A program made the translations under genes and the position numbers. Below, piece by piece: positions 15,192-28,618 of a stretch of 60,277 nucleotides of DNA (the first letter of the stretch is position 1; the number at the start of each line of letters is the position of its first letter). The notes under the pieces were generated by a model that saw only the letters and a program-made list of their open reading frames with translations, had not been told where the DNA came from and searched no databases. Source of the stretch: a virus (Duplodnaviria > Caudoviricetes); IMG/VR virus record IMGVR_UViG_3300030380_002146, positions 1 to 60,277 of that record. The stretch is one strand, 5' to 3'.

Positions 15192-15555
15192 TCTTCTTGG
15201 TAAGTTTATAGAAGATAAAGATATGAAGAACAAGTTGGCACATGAAGTGGCAACTATGGCTGAAAACCATGCTCAAGAGTTAGCAAAAGGTCAGCTAGAG
15301 ATAAACAAAGCAGAAGCTACGCATAAATCGATATTTGTGGCTGGATGGCGACCATTTATCGGTTGGACTTGTGGAGTAGCTTTATGTTGGCATTTTGTTC
15401 TTGCACCAGTAACCATGTTCCTTTGTGCCTATTTAGGAGTAGTCATACCTGAACTGCCAACATTTGATATGGGTAGCCTTATGACAGTCTTAATGGGAAT
15501 GTTAGGACTTGGTGGTCTTAGGACATATGAGAAACAAAAAGGGTTGACTAAGTAG
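15160..15555 (+). CDS. Holin of the 3TM (GTA-holin-like) family
   Basis: FVAGWRPFIGW and LMGMLGLGGLRTYEK motifs; GGAG RBS favours the ATG at 15160. Confidence 0.8.
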   Translation: MLTALIGPVSNLLGKFIEDKDMKNKLAHEVATMAENHAQELAKGQLEINKAEATHKSIFVAGWRPFIGWTCGVALCWHFVLAPVTMFLCAYLGVVIPELPTFDMGSLMTVLMGMLGLGGLRTYEKQKGLTK

Positions 15556-16012
15556 CAACTTGTTCCTTAATACCTAAGTCTTCCATTCTTTTTATGAGTC
15601 GATTAGCACGATTAGTTACTTGTTTATGCCAACGGCTATCTTCCATTTGAACTGCTGCTTCAAACCAGTCTTCCTCAGCAATAGCTTTATTCATATTCTT
15701 AAATTTAGAAAGACGAGGTCTGCCCATATTAAACATCATGTTACATAAGATCAACTGTGCTTCCTCTGGTATTTGATCAAAGTTATCATATAGTTTTTTA
15801 CACTCTTCTATTGTACCAAAAACATCTGTTTGAAAACAATTATTGACTCTATCTTCGGAAACTTCAGTACCAACAGGTTTTCCATATTCGTCATCCCACT
15901 CTGTTACAAGATGTCCAATACCAAAAGTAGGTAGCCCAAGGTGATCTAAATATACCTCGTACTTACAACCCTCGTCTTTTTCTATTTCTACTCTTAGTCT
16001 ATCAATATTCAT
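15548..16012 (-). CDS. Phage lysozyme (GH24, T4-type endolysin)
   Basis: DEG..YEVYLDHLGLPTFGIGHLV catalytic E-D-T region; NMMFNMG; SRWHKQVTNRANRL. Confidence 0.9.
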   Translation of the reverse strand: MNIDRLRVEIEKDEGCKYEVYLDHLGLPTFGIGHLVTEWDDEYGKPVGTEVSEDRVNNCFQTDVFGTIEECKKLYDNFDQIPEEAQLILCNMMFNMGRPRLSKFKNMNKAIAEEDWFEAAVQMEDSRWHKQVTNRANRLIKRMEDLGIKEQVAT

Positions 16013-16215
16013 TAAACTGCCTCCAATGGTTTTATACTTAATTCATATCCCATTTTATTTAATACTTTATCGAAGTTTTCAAGAGTTGGTTGTCTTTGTC
16101 TTGCTTCCCAAGTATAAACTGTAATGACACTAACACCTGTATCTTCCGATACTTGCTTTTGAGTCAAGTCGTTTTCTTTTCTCAAGTCTTTAAATGTTTT
16201 AATTAAATCAGCCAT
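16012..16215 (-). CDS. XRE/Cro-family helix-turn-helix regulator
   Basis: LRKENDLTQKQVSEDTGVSVITVYTWE...PTLENF. Confidence 0.85.
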   Translation of the reverse strand: MADLIKTFKDLRKENDLTQKQVSEDTGVSVITVYTWEARQRQPTLENFDKVLNKMGYELSIKPLEAV

Positions 16216-17654
16216 TTTTTCCAATCTTCTCCTAGAACTTGTGTAGCTATATTTATCTTTTGTCTTAATGCTTTTACTATAACTTCATCAACCGTTTTTT
16301 CTGAAACAAGATCAATATAAGTAACTTTTTGTTCCTGACCGATTCTGTGTGCACGGTCTTCTGATTGCAACCTTACCTCAAGATCATAACTATTACTATA
16401 ATAAATTACTGTATTAGCAGCAGTTAGGGTAAGACCATAGCCCCCAGTTTTGGGTTGACCAATAAAAAACCTAAGATCGTCGTTGTTTTGAAAAGACTCG
16501 ACAATCTTTTGTCTTTCTTCTCCTGGAGTATCACCAAAGTATGATGCAGTTGATTTATCACCATATTCTTTTTTAAGAGCAGATTGGATAGCTAATATAT
16601 CGTGTCTATAGTTAGCCCATATAATTGCTTTTCCGTTTACTTCTTCTAAAATACCAAGAAGTTCAGTTAACCTATTGTTTTTTAATTCAACACTAGAACC
16701 ACTATCTGTATTTAAAAAGCCACAACTTATTTGATGAAGTCGTAATAGCTGAGTTATAACAGCGTTTGCAGTAACTTGTTCCATATCATCTAATATAGTA
16801 ACTGCATTCTTTTTCATTTCGTCGTATACTTTTTTCTGTTCAGGGGTTAACTCTATAGATCGTCTTGTATATACTTTTTCTGGTAAATCTAAACATTGTT
16901 CTTTCGTAACTCTAAACGAATTAGGTTTAATAAGATCAGTAAGTTCATCTAAGTTTCTAAACCCAAGTATTTGATTATATTGGTGTGTTCCTGCAGACCT
17001 ACGAATCATATCTGCAAAGCGAGAACAAAAAGAGTAATATGATTTAAAGCCTAGTATTGATTCGCCAAGGAAAGCAAACTGAGAATATAAGTCTAAAGGT
17101 GATTTAGTTATTGGTGAACCTGTAAGTATTCTTTTATACTTTGCTTGTTTTGCTAAGTCTATTGCGTTCTTAGTTCTTTTTGCTTTAGGGTTTTTTATTA
17201 CTGTCGATTCGTCTATAGCCAATAACGATCCAAGACCAAGTCCATTCTTATGCCTAAACAAAAACTTCTTTGCTACTTCTAAAGCCTTACCTCCTGATAA
17301 TGCTTCGATATTCATTACAAATATATGTAGATCCCACTCTGGATCCCAAATACTTTTTATCTGATTTTTTATCTTCTGTGTTAAGGGCGAAGCCCAATAA
17401 GCAACTTTATATTCTATGTGCTCAGGTAAGTGGTTTGGTATCTCTTGTCCAACCCAGTTTTTGTAAACACCTTTCGGTGCAAGAATCAAAGCTGAATTAA
17501 TCTCGCCCTTATCGTAAAGATGTGCTATGGTATCTATTAATACTTTTGATTTTCCTGTTCCCATATCCATTAACAATGCGTATTCTTGTTTTTCGCAGGA
17601 AACAGTTAAAGCATCTAATTGATGCTTATACGGTTTAGTTTTAAACTTAAACAA
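16203..17654 (-). CDS. SNF2-family (SF2) helicase
   Basis: MDMGTGKS, IDES, LTGSP, GGYGLTLTAA and QSEDRAHRIGQ motifs; TTG start with an AGGAG RBS. Confidence 0.9.
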   Translation of the reverse strand: MFKFKTKPYKHQLDALTVSCEKQEYALLMDMGTGKSKVLIDTIAHLYDKGEINSALILAPKGVYKNWVGQEIPNHLPEHIEYKVAYWASPLTQKIKNQIKSIWDPEWDLHIFVMNIEALSGGKALEVAKKFLFRHKNGLGLGSLLAIDESTVIKNPKAKRTKNAIDLAKQAKYKRILTGSPITKSPLDLYSQFAFLGESILGFKSYYSFCSRFADMIRRSAGTHQYNQILGFRNLDELTDLIKPNSFRVTKEQCLDLPEKVYTRRSIELTPEQKKVYDEMKKNAVTILDDMEQVTANAVITQLLRLHQISCGFLNTDSGSSVELKNNRLTELLGILEEVNGKAIIWANYRHDILAIQSALKKEYGDKSTASYFGDTPGEERQKIVESFQNNDDLRFFIGQPKTGGYGLTLTAANTVIYYSNSYDLEVRLQSEDRAHRIGQEQKVTYIDLVSEKTVDEVIVKALRQKINIATQVLGEDWKKWLI

Positions 17655-19692: not shown

Positions 19693-21219
19693 ATGATAGC
19701 AAAGGAATTCGCACAGTTATTCGCAGGGTTACGAAAGGCTTATGGCTCTTTCGTTTCAGAAGAGGGTAACGGCATAGGAAAAGAAAAGGGAAGATACCGT
19801 ATCATATCAGAGGATATCGACGATTTACGGTTACAAGAACTTTGGAAAAATCATTTAGAAGGCAAAAGTTCATTAGGTATTATACCTATTACTGAAAACA
19901 ATACGTGTACTTGGGGGGCTATTGATATAGATCAATATCCTCTAAACCATAGTGATTTAGTAACTAAGTTAATACAAACTAATGAACTTCCTTTTGTAGT
20001 GGCACGGTCTAAATCAGGGGGTGCACATGTATATGTGTTTTTATCTGAACCAGTCAGCTGTGCTATTGTTCAACATAAATTAAAAGATATTGCATCGGTG
20101 TTAGGTTATGCAACGGCAGAGATATTCCCCAAACAAACTAAACTTTTGTTAGAAAAAGGTGATAGAGGTAGCACTTTAAATATGCCTTACTTCGGTGGTA
20201 AACGTACAACTAGGTATGCTCACGATGATAAAGGGGTAGCAATAACAGACTTAGAAGAATTTTTAAAATATGCAAAAAGCAAAGTAATCAGTAAGAAGCA
20301 ATTAGAAAGCCTAAAGATTATATCAGCAGATAACGCAGATAAAGATTTGGAGGGTGCACCACCTTGTTTAAAAATACTTTGTAGTATGGGCTTTCCTGAA
20401 GGAACTAGGAATAATGGGTTATTTGATGTCGGTGTGTTTTTAAGAAAGAAGTTTTCAGACGATTGGGAAAAGAAGTTAGAAGAAAAGAACTTTCAATATA
20501 TGAAGCCTCCACTTGGTGCTGCAGATGTATTGACTGTTATTAAGTCGTTAAGTAATAGAGATTATCAATATAAGTGTAACGACCAACCTATCGCATCTCA
20601 TTGTAATGCTGCCGTTTGTCGAACATGTGAATACGGTGTTGGTTCTTCTGGAGGTTTACCACAATTTAGTAATTTACAAAAGCAGGATTCTACTCCTCCT
20701 ATTTGGTTTTTAGATGTAGAGGGTTATCGAATAGAACTTACAACAGACGAGTTACAAAACCAAACTAAATTTCAAAGAAGATGTATGGATGAATTAAACT
20801 TTATGCCGTTAACTATGCGACAAAACAACTGGAGAACGGTAGTCCAACAATTATTAGATAGTGTATCTATTATCGAAGTGCCTGACGATGTTTCCGTTCA
20901 CGGACAGTTCAAAGAACTATTAGAGTCTTTTTGTACAGAGCGTGCACAAGCCCAATCAAGAGACGAGTTATTATTAGGTAAGCCTTGGACAGAAGAAAGT
21001 AAAACTTATTTTAGGTTAAAAGATTTAATTGATTATTTTGGTAGGCAACAGTTTAGGGATTATGGTAGAAACCATATTGCTGCAAGGCTCAGAGAATTAG
21101 GAGGGGGCGATCACTTCTTCCATGTAAAAGGTAAAGGTGTAACTGTTTGGTATATACCTGAGTTTAGTTCTCAAGAAGATAGCTTTGAGTTACCTAGTAT
21201 GGGCGAGGATCCATTTTGA
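19693..21219 (+). CDS. Primase (AEP/primase-polymerase type with PriCT-like region)
   Basis: WGAIDID, RSKSGGAHVY, LNMPYF, PPCL...EGTRNNGLF and a C-terminal Cys/His cluster. Confidence 0.8.
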   Translation: MIAKEFAQLFAGLRKAYGSFVSEEGNGIGKEKGRYRIISEDIDDLRLQELWKNHLEGKSSLGIIPITENNTCTWGAIDIDQYPLNHSDLVTKLIQTNELPFVVARSKSGGAHVYVFLSEPVSCAIVQHKLKDIASVLGYATAEIFPKQTKLLLEKGDRGSTLNMPYFGGKRTTRYAHDDKGVAITDLEEFLKYAKSKVISKKQLESLKIISADNADKDLEGAPPCLKILCSMGFPEGTRNNGLFDVGVFLRKKFSDDWEKKLEEKNFQYMKPPLGAADVLTVIKSLSNRDYQYKCNDQPIASHCNAAVCRTCEYGVGSSGGLPQFSNLQKQDSTPPIWFLDVEGYRIELTTDELQNQTKFQRRCMDELNFMPLTMRQNNWRTVVQQLLDSVSIIEVPDDVSVHGQFKELLESFCTERAQAQSRDELLLGKPWTEESKTYFRLKDLIDYFGRQQFRDYGRNHIAARLRELGGGDHFFHVKGKGVTVWYIPEFSSQEDSFELPSMGEDPF

Positions 21220-22718
21220 GTATAGATCCTTCTACATGGTCGATTATTCTTGGACCTCCAGGAACTGGAAAGACTACAACGATTCTTAACCTAATAGAGA
21301 TGGAGATGCAAAAAGGAACTCCACCTGATAAGATAGGTTATTTTGCTTTTACAAAGAAAGCATCTGACGAGGGCAAGGATAGAACTATGGAACGGTTTGC
21401 TTTAACTGGAAAAGACATACCCAACTTTAGAACGCTACACTCTTTGTGCTATCGTATGCTAGGTCTGTCACGAGACTCGGTCATGGCTCGTTCAAGCTAT
21501 AGAGAGTTTAACGATATTATGGGTTTACGTTTAACAGGAGATATAAGCCTAGAAGAAGGATCTATTTCTTTATTATCTAAAGATGATAAGTTAAAATTTA
21601 TCGAAGGATTAGCAAGGCTCAAGTGCCAAGATCTTAGGTCGGAGTGGCAAGAACACTACGATGAAGATATAGATTGGCATACGTTAGAAAGATTTTCTAA
21701 GGGCTTAAACCAATTTAAACAAGCAAGAGGGCTATATGATTTCACAGATATGCTTGATATGTGTGTAAGGAAAGAACTTGCCCCAACTCTAGACGTTATG
21801 TTTGTTGATGAAGCACAAGACCTTAGTCCTTTACAGTGGCAATTAGTAAAGATTCTCGCACAAAAATCTAAGCGAGTCTATATCGCTGGTGATGATGATC
21901 AAGCTATCTTTCGCTGGGCAGGGGCAGATGTGAACTTCTTGATTGACATATCCAGTGGTGCTAGGGTTTTGGAGAAAAGCTATCGTATTCCCCAAAGTGT
22001 TTTTAGAATAGCTAACAAAGTCATAAGTCGTATTAAGACAAGAACACAAAAAGTTTGGAGTCCTAGAGAAGAGACTGGTAATGTAGTCACCGAAGCAAGT
22101 TTCGAACATGTTGATATATCCTCTGGTCAATGGTTAATATTATCTCGATCTAATTATTTATTAAACGAGGTTGAAGCCCATTGTAGAGGATTAGGTGTAT
22201 ACTTTGAAAGAAAAAACAATCCTTCTATATCTCAAAAGAAAATAGATGCAGTAAAAAACTGGGAGGAACTAAGGAAAGGCAATCTTATTTTTCCTGACCA
22301 AGCTGAAAATATGTTACCGTATATAAAAGAAGCGAAAAGAAAAGCATTAGAAGGAGTAGAATCTTCTCGTAAACTTACATTAAAAGAAATACAAAACTTA
22401 GCAGAACTACCTGAACCAAAAATATGGCATGATATGTTTACTGCTCTTACCCCACACGAAAGAAGTTATATTCTTTCTATGCTTCGTCTTGGCGAAAAGA
22501 TAACTAAAAAACCACGGATAACATTATCTACAATACATTCAGCTAAAGGAGGAGAAGCTGATAATGTAATCTTATTAACCGACTTACCACATAGAACTTG
22601 GAAGTCTTACGAGAAAAACCCAGACGATGATACAAGGGTTTTTTATGTAGGCTTAACTAGGGCTAAACAAAAGCTACATATAGTTCAGCCAATGACCAAT
22701 AAGTTTTTTATGGTATGA
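21216..22718 (+). CDS. UvrD/Rep-like SF1 helicase
   Basis: GPPGTGKTT, VDEAQD, GDDDQAIF, SYRIP, STIHSAKGGEAD and FYVGLTRAK. Confidence 0.92.
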   Translation: MSIDPSTWSIILGPPGTGKTTTILNLIEMEMQKGTPPDKIGYFAFTKKASDEGKDRTMERFALTGKDIPNFRTLHSLCYRMLGLSRDSVMARSSYREFNDIMGLRLTGDISLEEGSISLLSKDDKLKFIEGLARLKCQDLRSEWQEHYDEDIDWHTLERFSKGLNQFKQARGLYDFTDMLDMCVRKELAPTLDVMFVDEAQDLSPLQWQLVKILAQKSKRVYIAGDDDQAIFRWAGADVNFLIDISSGARVLEKSYRIPQSVFRIANKVISRIKTRTQKVWSPREETGNVVTEASFEHVDISSGQWLILSRSNYLLNEVEAHCRGLGVYFERKNNPSISQKKIDAVKNWEELRKGNLIFPDQAENMLPYIKEAKRKALEGVESSRKLTLKEIQNLAELPEPKIWHDMFTALTPHERSYILSMLRLGEKITKKPRITLSTIHSAKGGEADNVILLTDLPHRTWKSYEKNPDDDTRVFYVGLTRAKQKLHIVQPMTNKFFMV

Positions 22719-22795: not shown

Positions 22796-23116
22796 ATGAA
22801 AATAGGAAAAAAAGTTCAAGTTACTTCTCTTGGTATTGAATTAGAAGATGATATACCAGTGCCTCCAGGATCTGATCGTAGATCTGCAGAACGAAAATAC
22901 CCTTTAAATGAAATGAAAGTAGGACAGTCTTTCTTTTTACCTTTAGAGGAGGGTGATAACTTAAAGCGTATGGCTAATCGTTTGAGCCAAGCTAGGCAAA
23001 CATACCAGAAAAAATATGAGGGTGTTCGCTTTACTCAAAGGCTATGGGAACAAGATGATCCTGATAATGTTGGGAACAACAGTACTCTTGGTATACGAGT
23101 CTGGCGTGTCCAATAA
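22796..23116 (+). CDS. Conserved phage hypothetical protein (putative DNA-binding)
   Basis: EDDIPVP...KYPLNEMKVGQSFF...GIRVWRV; own promoter and AGAAAGG RBS. Confidence 0.65.
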   Translation: MKIGKKVQVTSLGIELEDDIPVPPGSDRRSAERKYPLNEMKVGQSFFLPLEEGDNLKRMANRLSQARQTYQKKYEGVRFTQRLWEQDDPDNVGNNSTLGIRVWRVQ

Positions 23117-23153
23117 AGATCTTTCTCACCCAGAGGGGTATCGACAAGAGTAT

Positions 23154-23510
23154 ATGTCTGGGTGCACAAGGTTTTGGCACCCAGAAGAATTACAAAAATT
23201 ATTAGATGAATCACCAAAAATTAAAAAGGAGAGAGCCGTGGGCGAAGTTATTGATATTCAAAAAGTAAAGAAGACTAGAATAAAGCACGATGATAATACA
23301 TCTATTACTTATATAAAGCACCCAGAACGAGGGGCAAAACAAATGATGGTAATATTAGATGTTATAAAGCAAAACAATCCTATCATATCAAAAGACTTAA
23401 TGCATGATCTTTCAGGTTGTCTTGATACAACACAACCAGTCCATAAAGTTTTTAAACACTATCTTCGTGAGATGGTCGACAATGGGTATATCTCAATCAT
23501 GTCCTCATAG
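23154..23510 (+). CDS. Hypothetical protein, member of a 3-copy putative winged-helix family
   Basis: C-terminus aligns by eye with 38455..38805 and 39852..40232. Start is uncertain (ORF track extends it to 23016). Confidence 0.55.
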   Translation: MSGCTRFWHPEELQKLLDESPKIKKERAVGEVIDIQKVKKTRIKHDDNTSITYIKHPERGAKQMMVILDVIKQNNPIISKDLMHDLSGCLDTTQPVHKVFKHYLREMVDNGYISIMSS

Positions 23511-23604: not shown

Positions 23605-24444
23605 ATGGCATCTATACGAAAACGACTTGCAGTAAATGCAAACAATTCTAAAAACACTAGAATGGATATAGCTAGTGCAGGAACACTAGCAAACTGGCGA
23701 CCAGACGAACTAGCCCACATTAGTAGGTTTTGTAAAATGGGTCAACTTATTATGGATAAAGCTAAGACTCTTGGCAGACCAGTGGATATATTAGAAATAG
23801 GTTGTGGTGAAGTTTGGACGCTTCGTTATTTGTATAAAGCGTTTGTTTCAAGAAAAGCAGAAATAGTAAACAGCTATGTAGGTATGGATATTGATCCAGC
23901 TTGTCTCGATGATTGGTGGGTAGACGACGATTTACCATTAACTGAGCATAAATGGTTTCAAACTATGTCAGGTGGTAAAGGTCAGATTATTCTTCAAGAC
24001 TTAACAACTAACCCTGAACCTCCAGTAGAAGATGAGTCTATAGATGTGTTTATGACAACAGAAGTTATTGAACATATGGGAAGAGAGTTTATCGAACCGT
24101 GGATCGAAGCATCAGCTAGAAAACTCCGTTCAGGTGGTATTGCTTATATATCAACTCCTAACCATGACGGTTCGAATGATAAACTTCCAGAAGACCATGT
24201 TTATGAGTGGGGTTATGAAGAACTAAAAGAACTTTTAGAGAAACATTTTATATTAGAACGTCATTACGGTACGTTTACTCAAACTCATAACTTTAATAAA
24301 AACCACCGTGCTAATCTTCGATGGCCACAGCACGTCATAGACGACATAAAGAATAGGTTCGATAAACATTGGCAAAGAGTTCTTTTAGCTACGGCTTATC
24401 CTGAAACATCTAATAATGTAAACTGGCATTTAAGGAAGAAGTAA
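23605..24444 (+). CDS. Class I SAM-dependent methyltransferase (small-molecule type)
   Basis: Motif I ILEIGCGE, GMDID, post-II TEVIEHM, ISTPN; no DPPY/NPPY or PC DNA-methyltransferase motif. Confidence 0.8.
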   Translation: MASIRKRLAVNANNSKNTRMDIASAGTLANWRPDELAHISRFCKMGQLIMDKAKTLGRPVDILEIGCGEVWTLRYLYKAFVSRKAEIVNSYVGMDIDPACLDDWWVDDDLPLTEHKWFQTMSGGKGQIILQDLTTNPEPPVEDESIDVFMTTEVIEHMGREFIEPWIEASARKLRSGGIAYISTPNHDGSNDKLPEDHVYEWGYEELKELLEKHFILERHYGTFTQTHNFNKNHRANLRWPQHVIDDIKNRFDKHWQRVLLATAYPETSNNVNWHLRKK

Positions 24445-25271
24445 TGGAGCCAACAAGACGATTTTTTCGATGGATTGAGGATAGACATGAAATCTACTTA
24501 AAAAAAGAAGCAGGTCTTCCTCGCCCATGGACAACGGATGTCATATTAGATACATATCGATTTACCAATCCGTTTCGTGAAAACGATAAAACAACTGTGT
24601 GGTTTCGTGAGAACATGAGAGATCCACTCAAACATACAAAAGATGTATTATTAGCTACGGTAATTTTTCGTTGGTTTAATTTAATTGAAACTGGAGAAAC
24701 TTTATTAAGACATAATCTTCATAAGTTTTGGAATGCAGAACTAGCAAGAGAAAAAATAAAAGAACAAAAGAAGTTTGTTACTGGAGGATATATAATAAAA
24801 ACTCCAGACGGTATGGATAAAGTTGACGGTGTTATTTGGTGTATAAATAATATTGTAAAAAACCATAACAAAATTCTAAACGACTTTGCAGAGATAAATA
24901 CTTTACAAAAAGCCCACTTACTATTTCAAGAGTACCCATACTTAGGTCATTTTATGTCTTACGAATTAGTTTGTGATCTTCGCTATACTCTTTTCTTAGA
25001 TAAAGCCCTTGATATACATCGTTGGGCTAATGCTGGTCCAGGAGCGATGAGAGGGTTAAATCGTATTCATGGTCGTAGTTTAAATTATACAAGTAAGAAA
25101 CATGATTGGAATGCTGAAATGGTTGAGTTAAAATCAGTTCGTAACCAATACTTACCTTATTCTATAGCCCATAAACTAGAGATGCGAGAAATAGAACATA
25201 GCTTATGTGAGTTTGATAAGTATGAACGAGTCCGTAAAGGAGAAGGAAAGCCAAGGGGGTTATATAGATGA
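24444..25271 (+). CDS. aGPT-Pplase1-like (alpha-glutamyl/putrescinyl-thymine pathway) DNA base-modification protein
   Basis: DRHEIYLKKEAGLPRPWTTDVILDTYRFTNPFRENDKTT, FRWFN, GPGAMRGL and EIEHSLCEFDKY match my recollection of this family. Confidence 0.75.
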   Translation: MEPTRRFFRWIEDRHEIYLKKEAGLPRPWTTDVILDTYRFTNPFRENDKTTVWFRENMRDPLKHTKDVLLATVIFRWFNLIETGETLLRHNLHKFWNAELAREKIKEQKKFVTGGYIIKTPDGMDKVDGVIWCINNIVKNHNKILNDFAEINTLQKAHLLFQEYPYLGHFMSYELVCDLRYTLFLDKALDIHRWANAGPGAMRGLNRIHGRSLNYTSKKHDWNAEMVELKSVRNQYLPYSIAHKLEMREIEHSLCEFDKYERVRKGEGKPRGLYR

Positions 25272-26317
25272 TTACATTTCGTGGAGATAACGTAGAAGAA
25301 GTATTTCAAATAGCTTTACTGTCATTACGAGATCCGTCTAGCACGGTAAAGATACCAACTCGAAATGGCGATGTCTTAATGTTTAGAGACCCTGTTTGTT
25401 CTACTTACAACTTTCCAAGAGAACGAGTAATGTTTATTCCTGAGAGAGATTGTAATCCTTTTTTCCATTTTATAGAGGGCTTATGGATGTTAGCTGGACG
25501 AAGAGACGTAGAACCATTGGCACGATTCGTAAAAAGAATGAGAGAGTTTTCTGACGATGGAAACTTTTTATATGGATCTTACGGCTATCGTTGGAGACAC
25601 CAGTTTGGTTATGATCAGCTTCATAGTGTTATACAAAAACTAAAAGATAATAAATGGGATAGACGAATAGTTTTATCAATGTGGGATCCTGTACATGATC
25701 TTCATTATGTAGGTAAAGATGTTCCATGTAATACTCAAATATATTTTAAAGCCTATCCAACAAAAGAACTAGGGGAAGAGCATAACCAGATTAAATTAGA
25801 TATGACAGTTTGTTGTAGATCTAATGATTTAATTTGGGGTGCTTACGGTGCTAACGCAGTCCACTTTAGTATGCTTCATGAATATATAGCAACAATGTCA
25901 GGATTAAGTGTGGGTTGTTATCATCAAATTAGTAATAATGCTCATGTTTATTTAGATGTTTGGAATGAGTTAGATAAGAAACTTTCTAAAGGTATTTCTC
26001 CCCATGGTTATGAAACAGATCCAGATATGACTTGGCTAGACTTAATACAAGATAAACAAAACTTCGATAAGGATTTAAATTATTTCTTTAACTTGTTTTG
26101 TTCTAGTAAAGATAATGAAGAACTAGGTGGCATGTGGATAACACCAGATCATTTTAGTAATATGAAAACATTTGCTTACACAGCGATACCTATTGTTGAG
26201 GCATGGAACTATTATAAACAAAAAGACTATGACCATGCTATATTACAAGCCTCGACTATCCAAGCACCAGATTGGAGAAAAGCATGTATGGAGTGGTTAG
26301 AAAGGAAAGTAAAATGA
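25268..26317 (+). CDS. Thymidylate synthase-fold protein, probable dUMP hydroxymethylase
   Basis: YGYRWR, DRRIVLSMWDP, catalytic PCN, RSNDLIWG, GANAVHF (Asn at the dUMP-specificity position), NAHVY. Confidence 0.8.
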   Translation: MITFRGDNVEEVFQIALLSLRDPSSTVKIPTRNGDVLMFRDPVCSTYNFPRERVMFIPERDCNPFFHFIEGLWMLAGRRDVEPLARFVKRMREFSDDGNFLYGSYGYRWRHQFGYDQLHSVIQKLKDNKWDRRIVLSMWDPVHDLHYVGKDVPCNTQIYFKAYPTKELGEEHNQIKLDMTVCCRSNDLIWGAYGANAVHFSMLHEYIATMSGLSVGCYHQISNNAHVYLDVWNELDKKLSKGISPHGYETDPDMTWLDLIQDKQNFDKDLNYFFNLFCSSKDNEELGGMWITPDHFSNMKTFAYTAIPIVEAWNYYKQKDYDHAILQASTIQAPDWRKACMEWLERKVK

Positions 26318-26625
26318 GTAATCAAGCAACTAGAAGTAAGATAATTCAAAAAGTAAATAAATTAGCTAACGAAGATGTAACAGGTCTACACGAAGCAGAA
26401 AAGTCTTATGGAGATAGCTGGAAAAAGCGTGGAGGCATAGGGGCTTTTATGATGTTAGCTAGGAAGTGGGATCGTATAGAAAACCAAGCAAACGACTATA
26501 CTTACGATATCTTCTTAGCTTTAGACGAAGATAAGAGACCAGAGGGGCTTATAGACGATATAAGAGACCTTAGACGCTATCTACTACTAGTCGAGGCAGA
26601 AATGGCTTTACAAAAGAATGGGTAA
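26314..26625 (+). CDS. Nucleotide-modification-associated helical protein (Nmad1/DUF1599-like)
   Basis: KSYGDSWKKRG...ARKWDRI...DDIRDLRRYLLL. Confidence 0.65.
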   Translation: MSNQATRSKIIQKVNKLANEDVTGLHEAEKSYGDSWKKRGGIGAFMMLARKWDRIENQANDYTYDIFLALDEDKRPEGLIDDIRDLRRYLLLVEAEMALQKNG

Positions 26626-28618
26626 TACGGTAAAATCTTCCCAACAGAAAGGGAAGAAAGATATGTTTAAACAAAAGAACCCATTACAACAACCGTTGTT
26701 TACTCCTGATAGTTCTTGGACACCCCCAGAGTTTTTACCAGACTTATCTTCAGCTAAAGAAATAGCTATCGACCTTGAAACATGGGATCCAAACCTTAGA
26801 AACAAAGGTGCAGGTTGGGCTAGGAAAGATGGACAGATTGTTGGTATAGCTGTAGCTACTGACGGTTGGCAAGGTTATTTGCCTATTCGACATCGTGCTG
26901 GAGGCAACTTAGACGAAAACGCTGTCATGAGTTGGATGAAAGATGTAGCTAAAACGAAAGCTGATAAAGTTTGTCATAACGCTTCTTATGATATTGGCTG
27001 GTTAAAAGCTGAAGGTATTGAAGTTAAAGGTCGTATTATAGATACTATGATTGGTGCACCTTTGATTGATGAAAATAGATTTAGTTACTCTTTAAATAAC
27101 TTAGGTAAAACATATCTACAAGAAACTAAAAGCGAAGAACTATTATACGATGCTGCCCAAGCATGGGGTGTAGATGCAAAAGCAGGGTTATATCAGATTC
27201 CCCCTATGTATGTTGGTCCATATGCAGAGCAAGATGCTGCGATGACTTTACGACTATGGAACTGGCAAAAGTCAGAAATATCTAGGCAAGACTTATGGTC
27301 TGTATTCGATTTAGAAACGTCTATACTTCCTTTACTTATAGATATGAGAATGAAAGGTGTTAAAGTAGACCTAGAAGCTACAGAAAGACTATCTAAACAG
27401 TTTCAAGCAAAAGAGATGGAGTCTCTTCATCGCATAAAGCAACTCGTAGGCGAAGAAGTAGAAATATGGGCTAATGCTTCCATAGAAAAAGCATTCAAAA
27501 AACTCAACTTATCATTTAACTATACCGAAAAAGGATCACCGTCATTCCAGCAATCGTGGCTTGAAGCCCATGAACATGAGTTCCCACAGCTAATCGTAAA
27601 AGCACGAAAGATGAATAAAGCTAGGACAACTTTTATTGACGGTATGCTTATGAGTAATCAACAAAATGGTCGTATTCATGCAGAACTTCATCCACTACGT
27701 TCTGATGATGGGGGAACGGTTACTGGACGATTTAGTTACAGTAACCCAAACCTCCAACAAGTACCTGCAAGAGATCCTGAGATTGGTGCAGCAATAAGAT
27801 CCCTCTTCATCCCTGAAGACAACTGCGAGTGGGGAGCATTCGATTATTCTCAGCAAGAACCAAGATTAGTTGTTCATTACGCAGAGATGATGCAGTTAAG
27901 AGGTGCAAAAGATGCAGGAGATGCATTTAGAGACGGTGATGCAGACTTCCATCAAGTCGTAGCCGATATGGCAGGCATAAAAAGAAAGCAAGCAAAAAAC
28001 ATCAACCTTGGTTTGTTTTACTCTATGGGTGTAAAAAAGCTGTCTGATAGTCTAGGGCTAACCTTAGACGAAGGAAAAGAATTATTTGGTCGATATCATG
28101 AACGAGTACCTTTTGTAAAAGCGTTAAGTGAGCGTGCAATAAGACGAGCATCTGATCAAGGCAGTATAAGAACATTACTTGGTAGACGTTGTCGGTTCGA
28201 TAAATGGGAACCATCACAGTTTGGTACACGAAAAATTATGGATCATAAGACTGCCTATGCTGAACACGGTAATGCTATTAAAAGAGCCTTTACTCATAAA
28301 GCTATGAACAGACTTATACAAGGTAGTGCTGCAGATATGACAAAGAAAGCTATGCAGTTATTATATGCAGAGGGCATCATCCCCCATATCCAAGTACATG
28401 ACGAATTAGATTTTTCTATAGAATCGCATGAGCAAGCTGTTCGTATAAAAGAAATTATGGAACACTGTGTAGAACTATCTGTTCCTGTAAAAGTAGACGT
28501 TGATCTTGGTCCAAACTGGGGTGAAGCAAAAGACGCAGAAAAAGCAATAAAGCACGCAGAGTCTGTAAGGGGTTGGACGAGGGGTGCAGAGTCAGATTAC
28601 ACAAAGCAGGCAGTATAG
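26618..28618 (+). CDS. polA: DNA polymerase family A with 3'-5' exonuclease domain
   Basis: Exonuclease motifs DLET, HNASYD, YAEQD; TVTGRFS..NPNLQQVP; motif A DYSQQE, motif B RKQAKNINLGLFY, motif C QVHDE. Confidence 0.95.
   Translation: MGNTVKSSQQKGKKDMFKQKNPLQQPLFTPDSSWTPPEFLPDLSSAKEIAIDLETWDPNLRNKGAGWARKDGQIVGIAVATDGWQGYLPIRHRAGGNLDENAVMSWMKDVAKTKADKVCHNASYDIGWLKAEGIEVKGRIIDTMIGAPLIDENRFSYSLNNLGKTYLQETKSEELLYDAAQAWGVDAKAGLYQIPPMYVGPYAEQDAAMTLRLWNWQKSEISRQDLWSVFDLETSILPLLIDMRMKGVKVDLEATERLSKQFQAKEMESLHRIKQLVGEEVEIWANASIEKAFKKLNLSFNYTEKGSPSFQQSWLEAHEHEFPQLIVKARKMNKARTTFIDGMLMSNQQNGRIHAELHPLRSDDGGTVTGRFSYSNPNLQQVPARDPEIGAAIRSLFIPEDNCEWGAFDYSQQEPRLVVHYAEMMQLRGAKDAGDAFRDGDADFHQVVADMAGIKRKQAKNINLGLFYSMGVKKLSDSLGLTLDEGKELFGRYHERVPFVKALSERAIRRASDQGSIRTLLGRRCRFDKWEPSQFGTRKIMDHKTAYAEHGNAIKRAFTHKAMNRLIQGSAADMTKKAMQLLYAEGIIPHIQVHDELDFSIESHEQAVRIKEIMEHCVELSVPVKVDVDLGPNWGEAKDAEKAIKHAESVRGWTRGAESDYTKQAV

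Follow-up and report, generated by a model that had tools for sequence, protein, structure and literature searches.

The described gene clusters that most resemble the one considered here are those of the Pseudomonas phages PaMx11 and M6 (Lee et al. 2018 and 2021; PMC5889632, PMC8989533), which make use of a 5-hydroxymethyl-2'-deoxyuridine (5-hmdU) DNA kinase, an amino-acid:DNA transferase (ADDT) and further tailoring enzymes. In lysates of M6 the kinase together with a clade 2 Pplase suffices for transfer and the clade 1 paralogue gp55 is dispensable, and in phage ViI gp247 is necessary for transfer, according to the accessible text of PMC8989533. It has also been reported, in the accessible part of PMC9599517, that a thymidylate-synthase-fold gene and aG/PT-PPlase1 are 'partner AMGs' (auxiliary metabolic genes) in uncultivated HTVC023P-type pelagiphages, a virus group described there as widespread in the surface ocean. 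In this study, we analysed a four-gene operon at positions 23605-26625 of the viral record IMGVR_UViG_3300030380_002146, whose whole length of 60,277 bp (CheckV completeness 100%) is referred to below as the window. We consider the chances about even that this operon is a compact, kinase-independent thymidine-modification module making a 5-hmdU-derived modification of T that depends on S-adenosylmethionine (SAM), possibly 5-methoxymethyl-dU.

The four genes and the polymerase gene that follows them are:

23605-24444, + strand: MT, 279 aa, class I SAM-dependent methyltransferase of the small-molecule/O-methyltransferase type
24444-25271, + strand: HEL, 275 aa, aGPT-Pplase1/HMUDK_hel protein with a helix-hairpin-helix (HhH) DNA-glycosylase-like fold, a probable enzyme on 5-substituted uracil in DNA
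25268-26317, + strand: TS, 349 aa, thymidylate-synthase fold, predicted dUMP 5-hydroxymethylase
26314-26625, + strand: g4, 103 aa counted from the ATG, helical member of an unmodelled family, downstream of TS
26618-28618, + strand: PolA, family A DNA polymerase with a 3'-5' exonuclease domain (PF00476, PF01612)

The window shares with the PaMx11 and M6 clusters the gene order [modifier]-HEL-(x)-TS-...-PolA, with 38-42% identity in TS, 34-44% in the HEL paralogue and 39% in the related PolA downstream. Unlike those clusters, it carries no 5-hmdU DNA kinase, no ADDT, no pyridoxal-phosphate, radical SAM, FAD or acetyltransferase tailoring enzyme, and neither an HD dNMPase nor a dCMP deaminase; MT occupies the position of the kinase, and g4 that of the HD/DUF3310 genes. 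Compared with the pelagiphages of PMC9599517, the window belongs to the same lineage by PolA (51-55% identity) and has the same two genes close to PolA, and its HEL and TS pair is almost certainly the feature published there. In the main text of that paper the word methyltransferase occurs 0 times and kinase 2 times, both for a T8SS histidine kinase; the missing 5-hmdU kinase is not discussed in that main text, and the accessible text has no description of the fourth gene.

The original prediction of four tightly coupled genes running directly into the DNA polymerase agrees with the coordinates of the open reading frames (ORFs): MT and HEL are joined by TAATG, HEL and TS as well as TS and g4 by ATGA, and g4 and PolA by an 8-nt overlap, so that PolA closes the coupled run. 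A strong AAAGGAGG ribosome-binding site precedes MT, and the longest ORF for g4 would start at a TTG at 26272. Conservation of the operon as a unit was established with MT as query, which recovered 122 relatives in IMG/VR; among the best 80 of these 122, kept as related loci, the order MT-HEL-TS-g4-PolA is retained in 80/80 as far as the DNA reaches, at identities of 50-99%. Such an arrangement is far beyond chance. With HEL as query, each locus of at least 63% identity that includes upstream DNA has a window-type MT directly upstream, thus the linkage of MT and HEL holds in both directions. We regard the operon as a genuine and conserved feature whose genes make functional sense together.

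The absence of a kinase, a central point of the original prediction, withstood several kinds of search. Across the whole 60,277-bp record there were 0 matches to the 5-hmdU DNA kinase family PF18748 or to AAA_33 (PF13671), 0 to the ThiD-type kinase (PF08543) and thymidylate kinase (PF02223) families, 0 to ADDT (PF18724), and 0 to dCMP deaminase (PF00383), MazG (PF03819) or YfbR-type HD (PF12917) proteins; these direct family searches supplemented a Pfam scan of 40 early-region ORFs, for which the first 25 of 40 families were listed. A scan of the window's ORFs of at least 100 aa for Walker A motifs found them only in the two helicases, UvrD-like (21252) and SNF2-like (17561, - strand), apart from a single match in a tail protein that is due to chance; no small P-loop protein was seen. 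Searches by phmmer over the window and the 80 related loci with three kinases and two ADDTs gave 0 matches at E <= 1, and the same was true, over the same set, of MazG, the DUF3310 protein (PaMx11 gp53), dCMP deaminase, the glucosyltransferase and the kinase-like protein of phage AXL3. Nmad5 yielded only a weak match (E 0.56), and an HD protein was seen about 5-6 kb upstream of MT in 8/80 related loci. The window does not encode the canonical 5-hmdU pathway, in which 5-hmdU DNA kinase and ADDT are both present.

On the other hand, the lack of a kinase is less unusual than first supposed. Phage RP13 has aGPT-Pplase1 without a detectable kinase, and the gene also occurs in EP_H11 and EcoM_IME92 (accessible text of PMC13697223, a paper of 2026). 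The HEL family comprises 3,827 representatives at 50% clustering (E <= 0.001), from which we surveyed 80 diverse loci (L088-L167), 56 of them with at least 3 kb on both sides. A TS gene lies within reach of HEL in 71/80 of these loci and in 52/56 of those with long flanks. Among the 56, a PaMx11-type kinase is present in 29, in 20 of them directly upstream of HEL, and ADDT in 13; the remaining 27 have no kinase. Thus, while the association of aGPT-Pplase1 with a 5-hmdU DNA kinase is missing from the window, that association does not define the HEL family. A PhiJL001-type glucosyltransferase accompanies HEL in 17 of the 27 kinase-less loci, an FkbM-type methyltransferase in 7 and neither in 5, two loci having both (17 + 7 + 5 = 29), and a kinase and a glucosyltransferase never stand together beside HEL (0/56). 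PhiJL001, a phage of Alphaproteobacteria, and clade II pelagiphages resemble the window in having HEL and TS without a kinase and a hydroxyl-modifying transferase next to HEL; the partner there is a T6-type glucosyltransferase with Nmad5 and an HD nucleotidase, whereas in the window it is the methyltransferase alone.

The nearest relatives of HEL that lack a window-type MT fall into two kinds of locus. In the first (L197-L201, L204 and L206-L208; e.g. L198 3989-8328), HEL is accompanied by an FkbM-type methyltransferase (PF05050), a g4-like protein, a GT1 glycosyltransferase (PF00534) and TS, which suggests a glycosylated, perhaps sugar-methylated 5-hmdU. FkbM had been considered as a non-orthologous replacement of MT that would support methylation of the base, and this argument is weakened by the GT1 gene that is also present in the nearest such clusters. 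In the second kind (L196, L202, L203, L205, L209 and L226; e.g. L203 3989-8758), HEL is found with a mannose-6-P isomerase/cytidylyltransferase-like protein, an unknown gene, a radical SAM/SPASM enzyme and TS, and no kinase was detected. In a quick tree of 99 HEL representatives (from 222, after ORFs outside 240-360 aa and rows at least 80% identical to a kept row had been dropped), the MT-linked proteins form two supported clades within a strongly supported group that also holds the FkbM and radical SAM types. Survey and tree together indicate that HEL and TS are the constant core of these modules and that the partner enzymes are exchanged, the window being the simplest version, with a lone methyltransferase. 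As further features, L092, L093, L097 and L111 have a homologue of myo-inositol-1-phosphate synthase (PF01658, E 1e-33) at 0-0.8 kb on the downstream side of HEL (L132 has only a weak match, E 2.8e-5), and two HEL-family ORFs stand in tandem or one gene apart in L224, L237 and L243.

The same constancy could be explained in another way, namely that HEL is generic housekeeping in all 5-hmdU phages, for example turning leftover 5-hmdU back into thymine or proofreading U or T, and that MT alone makes the modification, the two having no reaction in common. A general role of this kind would fit a protein that keeps its TS companion in nearly all well-flanked loci as its other partners change among kinase and ADDT, glycosyltransferase, FkbM with GT1, radical SAM and methyltransferase. 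It would also fit the conversion of unmodified 5-hmdU into thymine in known phages, by an enzyme not identified in the accessible text of PMC8989533, and the formation of thymidine by ADDT together with borohydride that the same text describes. No feature that would bind a reductant was noticed in HEL, although none was sought. The overlap of the MT stop codon with the HEL start codon and the strictness of their linkage suggest a closer tie between MT and HEL, and we regard the housekeeping role as improbable, at rather less than one chance in five.

The synthase gene provides the first putative step of the module. TS matches PF00303 with 80.7 bits (cut-off 24.3) and phrog_5131 with E 1e-97, and retains the catalytic Cys154 (in VPCNTQ), R184-S185-N186-D187 and the Asn of GANAVHF. 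The original prediction had pointed to this Asn as the position that selects uracil, and the alignment agrees, since it falls on the Asn of thymidylate synthase (FNIASY) and on the Asp of the CMP hydroxymethylase MilA. The best PDB match of TS is MilA (E 3.8e-14), against E 5.5e-9 for the best thymidylate synthase, and in the region where thymidylate synthase reads IWDEWAD, TS reads REFSDDG and MilA AAYSADG. Identity is 42% to the M6-group enzyme and 38-42% to the enzymes of M6, PaMx11 and PhiJL001. As a canonical ThyA equivalog TS falls below the cut-offs of 7/7 NCBIfam thymidylate synthase models, the best score being 70 bits against 174.55. These features point to a uracil-type, hydroxymethylase-like enzyme, and TS is predicted to be a dUMP 5-hydroxymethylase. 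The TS gene of the window (25268-26317) is only 66% identical to that of L003-L005, whose flanking genes are 95-100% identical to those of the window, which suggests that TS has undergone mosaic exchange inside the operon.

Thymidylate synthases are common in marine phages, and the operon might be read as ordinary nucleotide metabolism, with TS making dTMP as an auxiliary metabolic gene, MT and HEL serving unrelated ends (methylation of RNA or small molecules, DNA binding in anti-defence) and no new base being formed. The phage encodes no enzymes that clear the nucleotide pool, and the fold of MT is generic, as this explanation would expect. Nevertheless, TS lies under all ThyA equivalog cut-offs, is nearest to a hydroxymethylase and groups with the M6 and PaMx11 enzymes, the HEL family occurs almost only beside TS-type enzymes, as the survey counts indicate, and the four genes are inherited together as a unit. 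We therefore think ordinary nucleotide metabolism very unlikely, with perhaps one chance in ten.

MT matches PF13489 (Methyltransf_23) with 36.7 bits (cut-off 27) and PF08241 (Methyltransf_11) with 29 (cut-off 21.2). Its motif I, LEIGCGE, is conserved, and E64, G66, G68, DIDP, TEVIEHM and STPN are invariant in 34 homologues. With an AlphaFold model (pLDDT 86.7) as query, Foldseek returned at least 500 class I methyltransferases at E <= 0.001, among them the generic enzymes RebM, AtmM, MitM and the phosphoethanolamine N-methyltransferases (PMT), at a TM-score of about 0.5. No DNA methyltransferase family, whether N6/N4 or C5, was matched by MT, for which the Pfam scan at E 0.01 returned generic Methyltransf_23, _11, _25 and _12 only, and the 240 relatives of MT come without exception from viral or metagenomic sources. 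The family assignments first made from the reading frames, namely MT as a small-molecule class I methyltransferase, the aGPT-Pplase1 protein as HMUDK_hel and the synthase as uracil-type, are retained, that of g4 as Nmad1-like being kept as a lead only.

MT lies immediately ahead of HEL, where PaMx11 (gp49 before gp50, the HEL homologue) and M6 (gp54 before gp55) have their 5-hmdU DNA kinase, while in phage Nachito the kinase lies two genes upstream of HEL; in sister modules the slot is held by a 5-hmdU DNA kinase or a glycosyltransferase. In addition, distant MT homologues (27-30% identity) adjoin TS-fold pyrimidine hydroxymethylases in two phages without HEL, AXL3 and ctUtU524, the MT profile matching AXL3 gp31 with E 9e-21. 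The module of AXL3, a Stenotrophomonas phage (L083, 5851-9885), consists of the MT homologue, an NTP-PPase, a kinase-like gene, a TS-fold hydroxymethylase and a dCMP deaminase, and the contig ctUtU524 (L087, 4854-8749) repeats this order except that an unannotated gap stands in place of the kinase-like gene. These siphovirus modules share with the window a homologous methyltransferase (29% identity) beside a TS-fold hydroxymethylase; unlike the window, they lack HEL and have a full set of pool-shaping enzymes. At its specificity site the AXL3 hydroxymethylase has an Asp, as cytosine-type enzymes do, and the DNA of AXL3 resisted 35/37 restriction enzymes, being cut only by two whose sites consist entirely of A and T (accessible text of PMC7504290). 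The AXL3/ctUtU524 module may be a pathway to methylated 5-hydroxymethylcytosine. Taken together, the probable catalytic nature of HEL, the slot and the company of AXL3 and ctUtU524 would link the MT family directly with the hydroxymethylated pyrimidine, and by analogy with phosphorylation and glycosylation, which act on the same hydroxyl, O-methylation is the simplest reading.

Glucosylation of 5-hydroxymethylcytosine in T4-type phages begins with a TS-fold hydroxymethylase working at the nucleotide level, after which a transferase modifies the hydroxymethyl group. The module proposed here would follow the same logic, differing in the base, in the donor (SAM here, UDP-glucose in T4) and in the extra HhH-fold enzyme. 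Judging from homology and active-site residues, TS would convert dUMP into 5-hydroxymethyl-dUMP, which host kinases would raise to the triphosphate, and PolA, presumably the enzyme that incorporates the modified nucleotide, would insert 5-hmdU alongside T. MT and SAM would then act on the 5-hydroxymethyl group, as gene position and the other loci suggest, with 5-methoxymethyl-dU as the simplest product, whether methylation takes place on DNA or on the nucleotide. Finally, HEL might flip out and process a 5-(substituted-methyl)uracil in DNA by covalent attack at C6; its Glu-x3-Cys motif is the same as in amino-acid:DNA transferases. On this scheme the phage DNA would contain 5-hmdU and its product, and replacement of thymine by a methylated 5-hmdU derivative is plausible.

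Several observations weigh against the scheme. The phage encodes no dCMP deaminase, dTTPase/MazG, HD dTMPase or dNMP kinase, all of which occur in M6, PaMx11 or AXL3, and as nothing in it would deplete dTTP or raise dUMP, replacement of T could be small or partial. The fold of MT matches generic small-molecule methyltransferases only and so indicates neither DNA nor a nucleotide as substrate, and identity to the AXL3 homologue is only 29%, over 78% of the protein. FkbM beside HEL is no clean support for methylation of the base, as GT1 is present and FkbM may methylate the sugar. O-methylation leaves HEL with no obvious job, though HEL is conserved as strongly as MT, and an hhalign comparison of the HEL profile with a two-sequence ADDT alignment was not significant (probability 1%). 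A complex prediction for HEL and MT scored 0.00 in both runs and speaks neither for nor against binding.

HEL itself matches PF18723 (HMUDK_hel) with 162.1 bits against a cut-off of 25 (E 2e-47), residues 5-267 covering profile positions 5-278 of 281. Its fold is HhH DNA-glycosylase-like and nearest to the ADDT of PaMx11, gp46. In 87 representatives C255 and E256 are invariant and E251, H252 and L254 nearly so, and the motif EIEHSLCEFDKY resembles, on comparison by eye, EVETILCKWKSH around the catalytic Cys247 of PaMx11 gp46. This Cys247 has been proposed as the attacker of C6, and in M6 gp51 and ViI gp247 the cysteine and a proximal glutamate are essential (accessible text of PMC11472151 and PMC8989533). 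With this invariant Cys-Glu pair in a motif that resembles the catalytic motif of ADDT, HEL is probably an enzyme. It is not itself an ADDT (aGPT-Pplase2) as far as PF18724 goes, which it does not match, the likeness being limited to the Cys motif and the fold. No fused domain was found in ten long HEL-containing proteins (388-506 aa), for which PF18723 alone was reported, and the accessible text of PMC8989533 and PMC13458397 assigns no activity to the aGPT-Pplase1 clade.

The catalytic-looking motif raises an alternative in which HEL is a group transferase that exchanges the hydroxyl of 5-hmdU, unactivated or phosphorylated by the host, for a cellular nucleophile such as an amine, amino acid or thiol, and MT methylates the appended group at N, O or carboxyl. 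Enzymes of the Methyltransf_11/23 type include carboxyl and N-methyltransferases, and the tailoring by MT would have its counterpart in M6 and PaMx11, where decarboxylase, lyase and acetyltransferase steps occur. The retention of an ADDT-type Cys-Glu motif in a fold nearest to gp46 would suit such a role, as would the 16/56 surveyed loci that have a kinase and HEL with no ADDT within reach, in which HEL may itself be the transferase, and the listing of SP10 with a HEL-type domain only, fused to the kinase (PMC5889632 Table 3, in its accessible form). Yet the HEL paralogue of M6, as mentioned, is dispensable for transfer in lysates (accessible text of PMC8989533), the phage encodes no kinase that would activate the hydroxyl, and MT homologues accompany hydroxymethylases in phages without HEL, which links MT to the hydroxymethylated base and not to a product of HEL. 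We give this group-transfer alternative roughly one chance in five. Returning to methylation of the hydroxymethyl group itself, its most specific version would be that abundant ocean podoviruses partly replace T with 5-methoxymethyluracil or another SAM-derived ether of 5-hmdU through a dUMP hydroxymethylase and an O-methyltransferase without ATP activation, that HEL is a second DNA-base enzyme attacking C6 with its cysteine, and that HEL and TS form a plug-in scaffold for kinase, glycosyltransferase, radical SAM enzyme or methyltransferase; in this full form we offer it tentatively, as a possible but on balance doubtful picture.

The fourth gene was first described as Nmad1-like, a name treated here as equivalent to DUF1599 (PF07659). 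Family searches gave this assignment no support: PF07659 has 0 matches in the genome at E <= 10 and matches 0/23 and 0/10 of the g4 homologues, and g4 has no match to Pfam (at E up to 1), NCBIfam or PDB profiles. A protein-language-model (Atlas) search gave a 0.96 match to a viral cluster in which 25% of the members have DUF1599, and with this as its sole basis the Nmad1-like label stays a lead only. Across 23 homologues the g4 core SYGDSWK-RGG-GAFMMLARK-DR-E ... DD-RDLRRYL does not vary, and 25/80 of the diverse HEL loci contain g4-like proteins (E 1e-17 to 1e-40); g4 is a recurrent accessory of HEL and TS modules. Searched with the g4 profile, the loci of PaMx11, M6, PhiJL001 and AXL3 yielded no homologue.

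Judging from PolA, which is 54.6% identical to that of phage 023Pt_psg01, 51.0% to that of Pelagibacter phage HTVC023P and 48.6% to that of HTVC027P, the phage is a relative of the HTVC023P-type pelagiphages, a marine podovirus. In its nearest PolA relative, 023Pt_psg01, two small ORFs separate the helicase from PolA and all four operon genes are missing, hence the four appear to be an accessory module inserted in one branch of the lineage. At the DNA level, blastn with the 3-kb region as query gave no match in the phage collection. The upstream flank of the operon contains:

21216-22718, + strand: UvrD-type helicase

Between this helicase and MT, at 22796-23510, lie a DUF7303 protein and an unassigned ORF of 164 aa, the latter present in 30/80 of the related loci at 31-93% identity. 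Further upstream, the primase at 19693-21219 matches the AEP-TOTE Pfam family, and 15548-17654, which includes the SNF2-type helicase, is the sole sizeable block on the - strand in a genome otherwise coded on the + strand.

The original prediction had called the route uncharacterised, which is too broad in view of the TS and aG/PT-PPlase1 pair already published for this lineage (accessible text of PMC9599517). The general idea and two of the four genes are in print; what is new is a methyltransferase-linked system of the 5-hmdU type without kinase and ADDT, and targeted literature searches turned up neither a paper connecting a methyltransferase with such clusters nor a report of 5-methoxymethyl pyrimidines in the DNA of phages. 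The survey offers a testable handle on the function of aGPT-Pplase1, a long-standing gap, as this protein is dispensable in M6 lysates and yet is the most constant partner of the hydroxymethylase in the sample, with a catalytic-looking Cys-Glu pair. If the proposed scheme is true, the methylated derivative of 5-hmdU would add a new base to those known from natural DNA, made by a very small and easily cloned set of genes, and it would be relevant to how phages evade restriction, to bias of sequencing and of polymerases in marine viromes, and to enzymatic labelling of 5-hmU.

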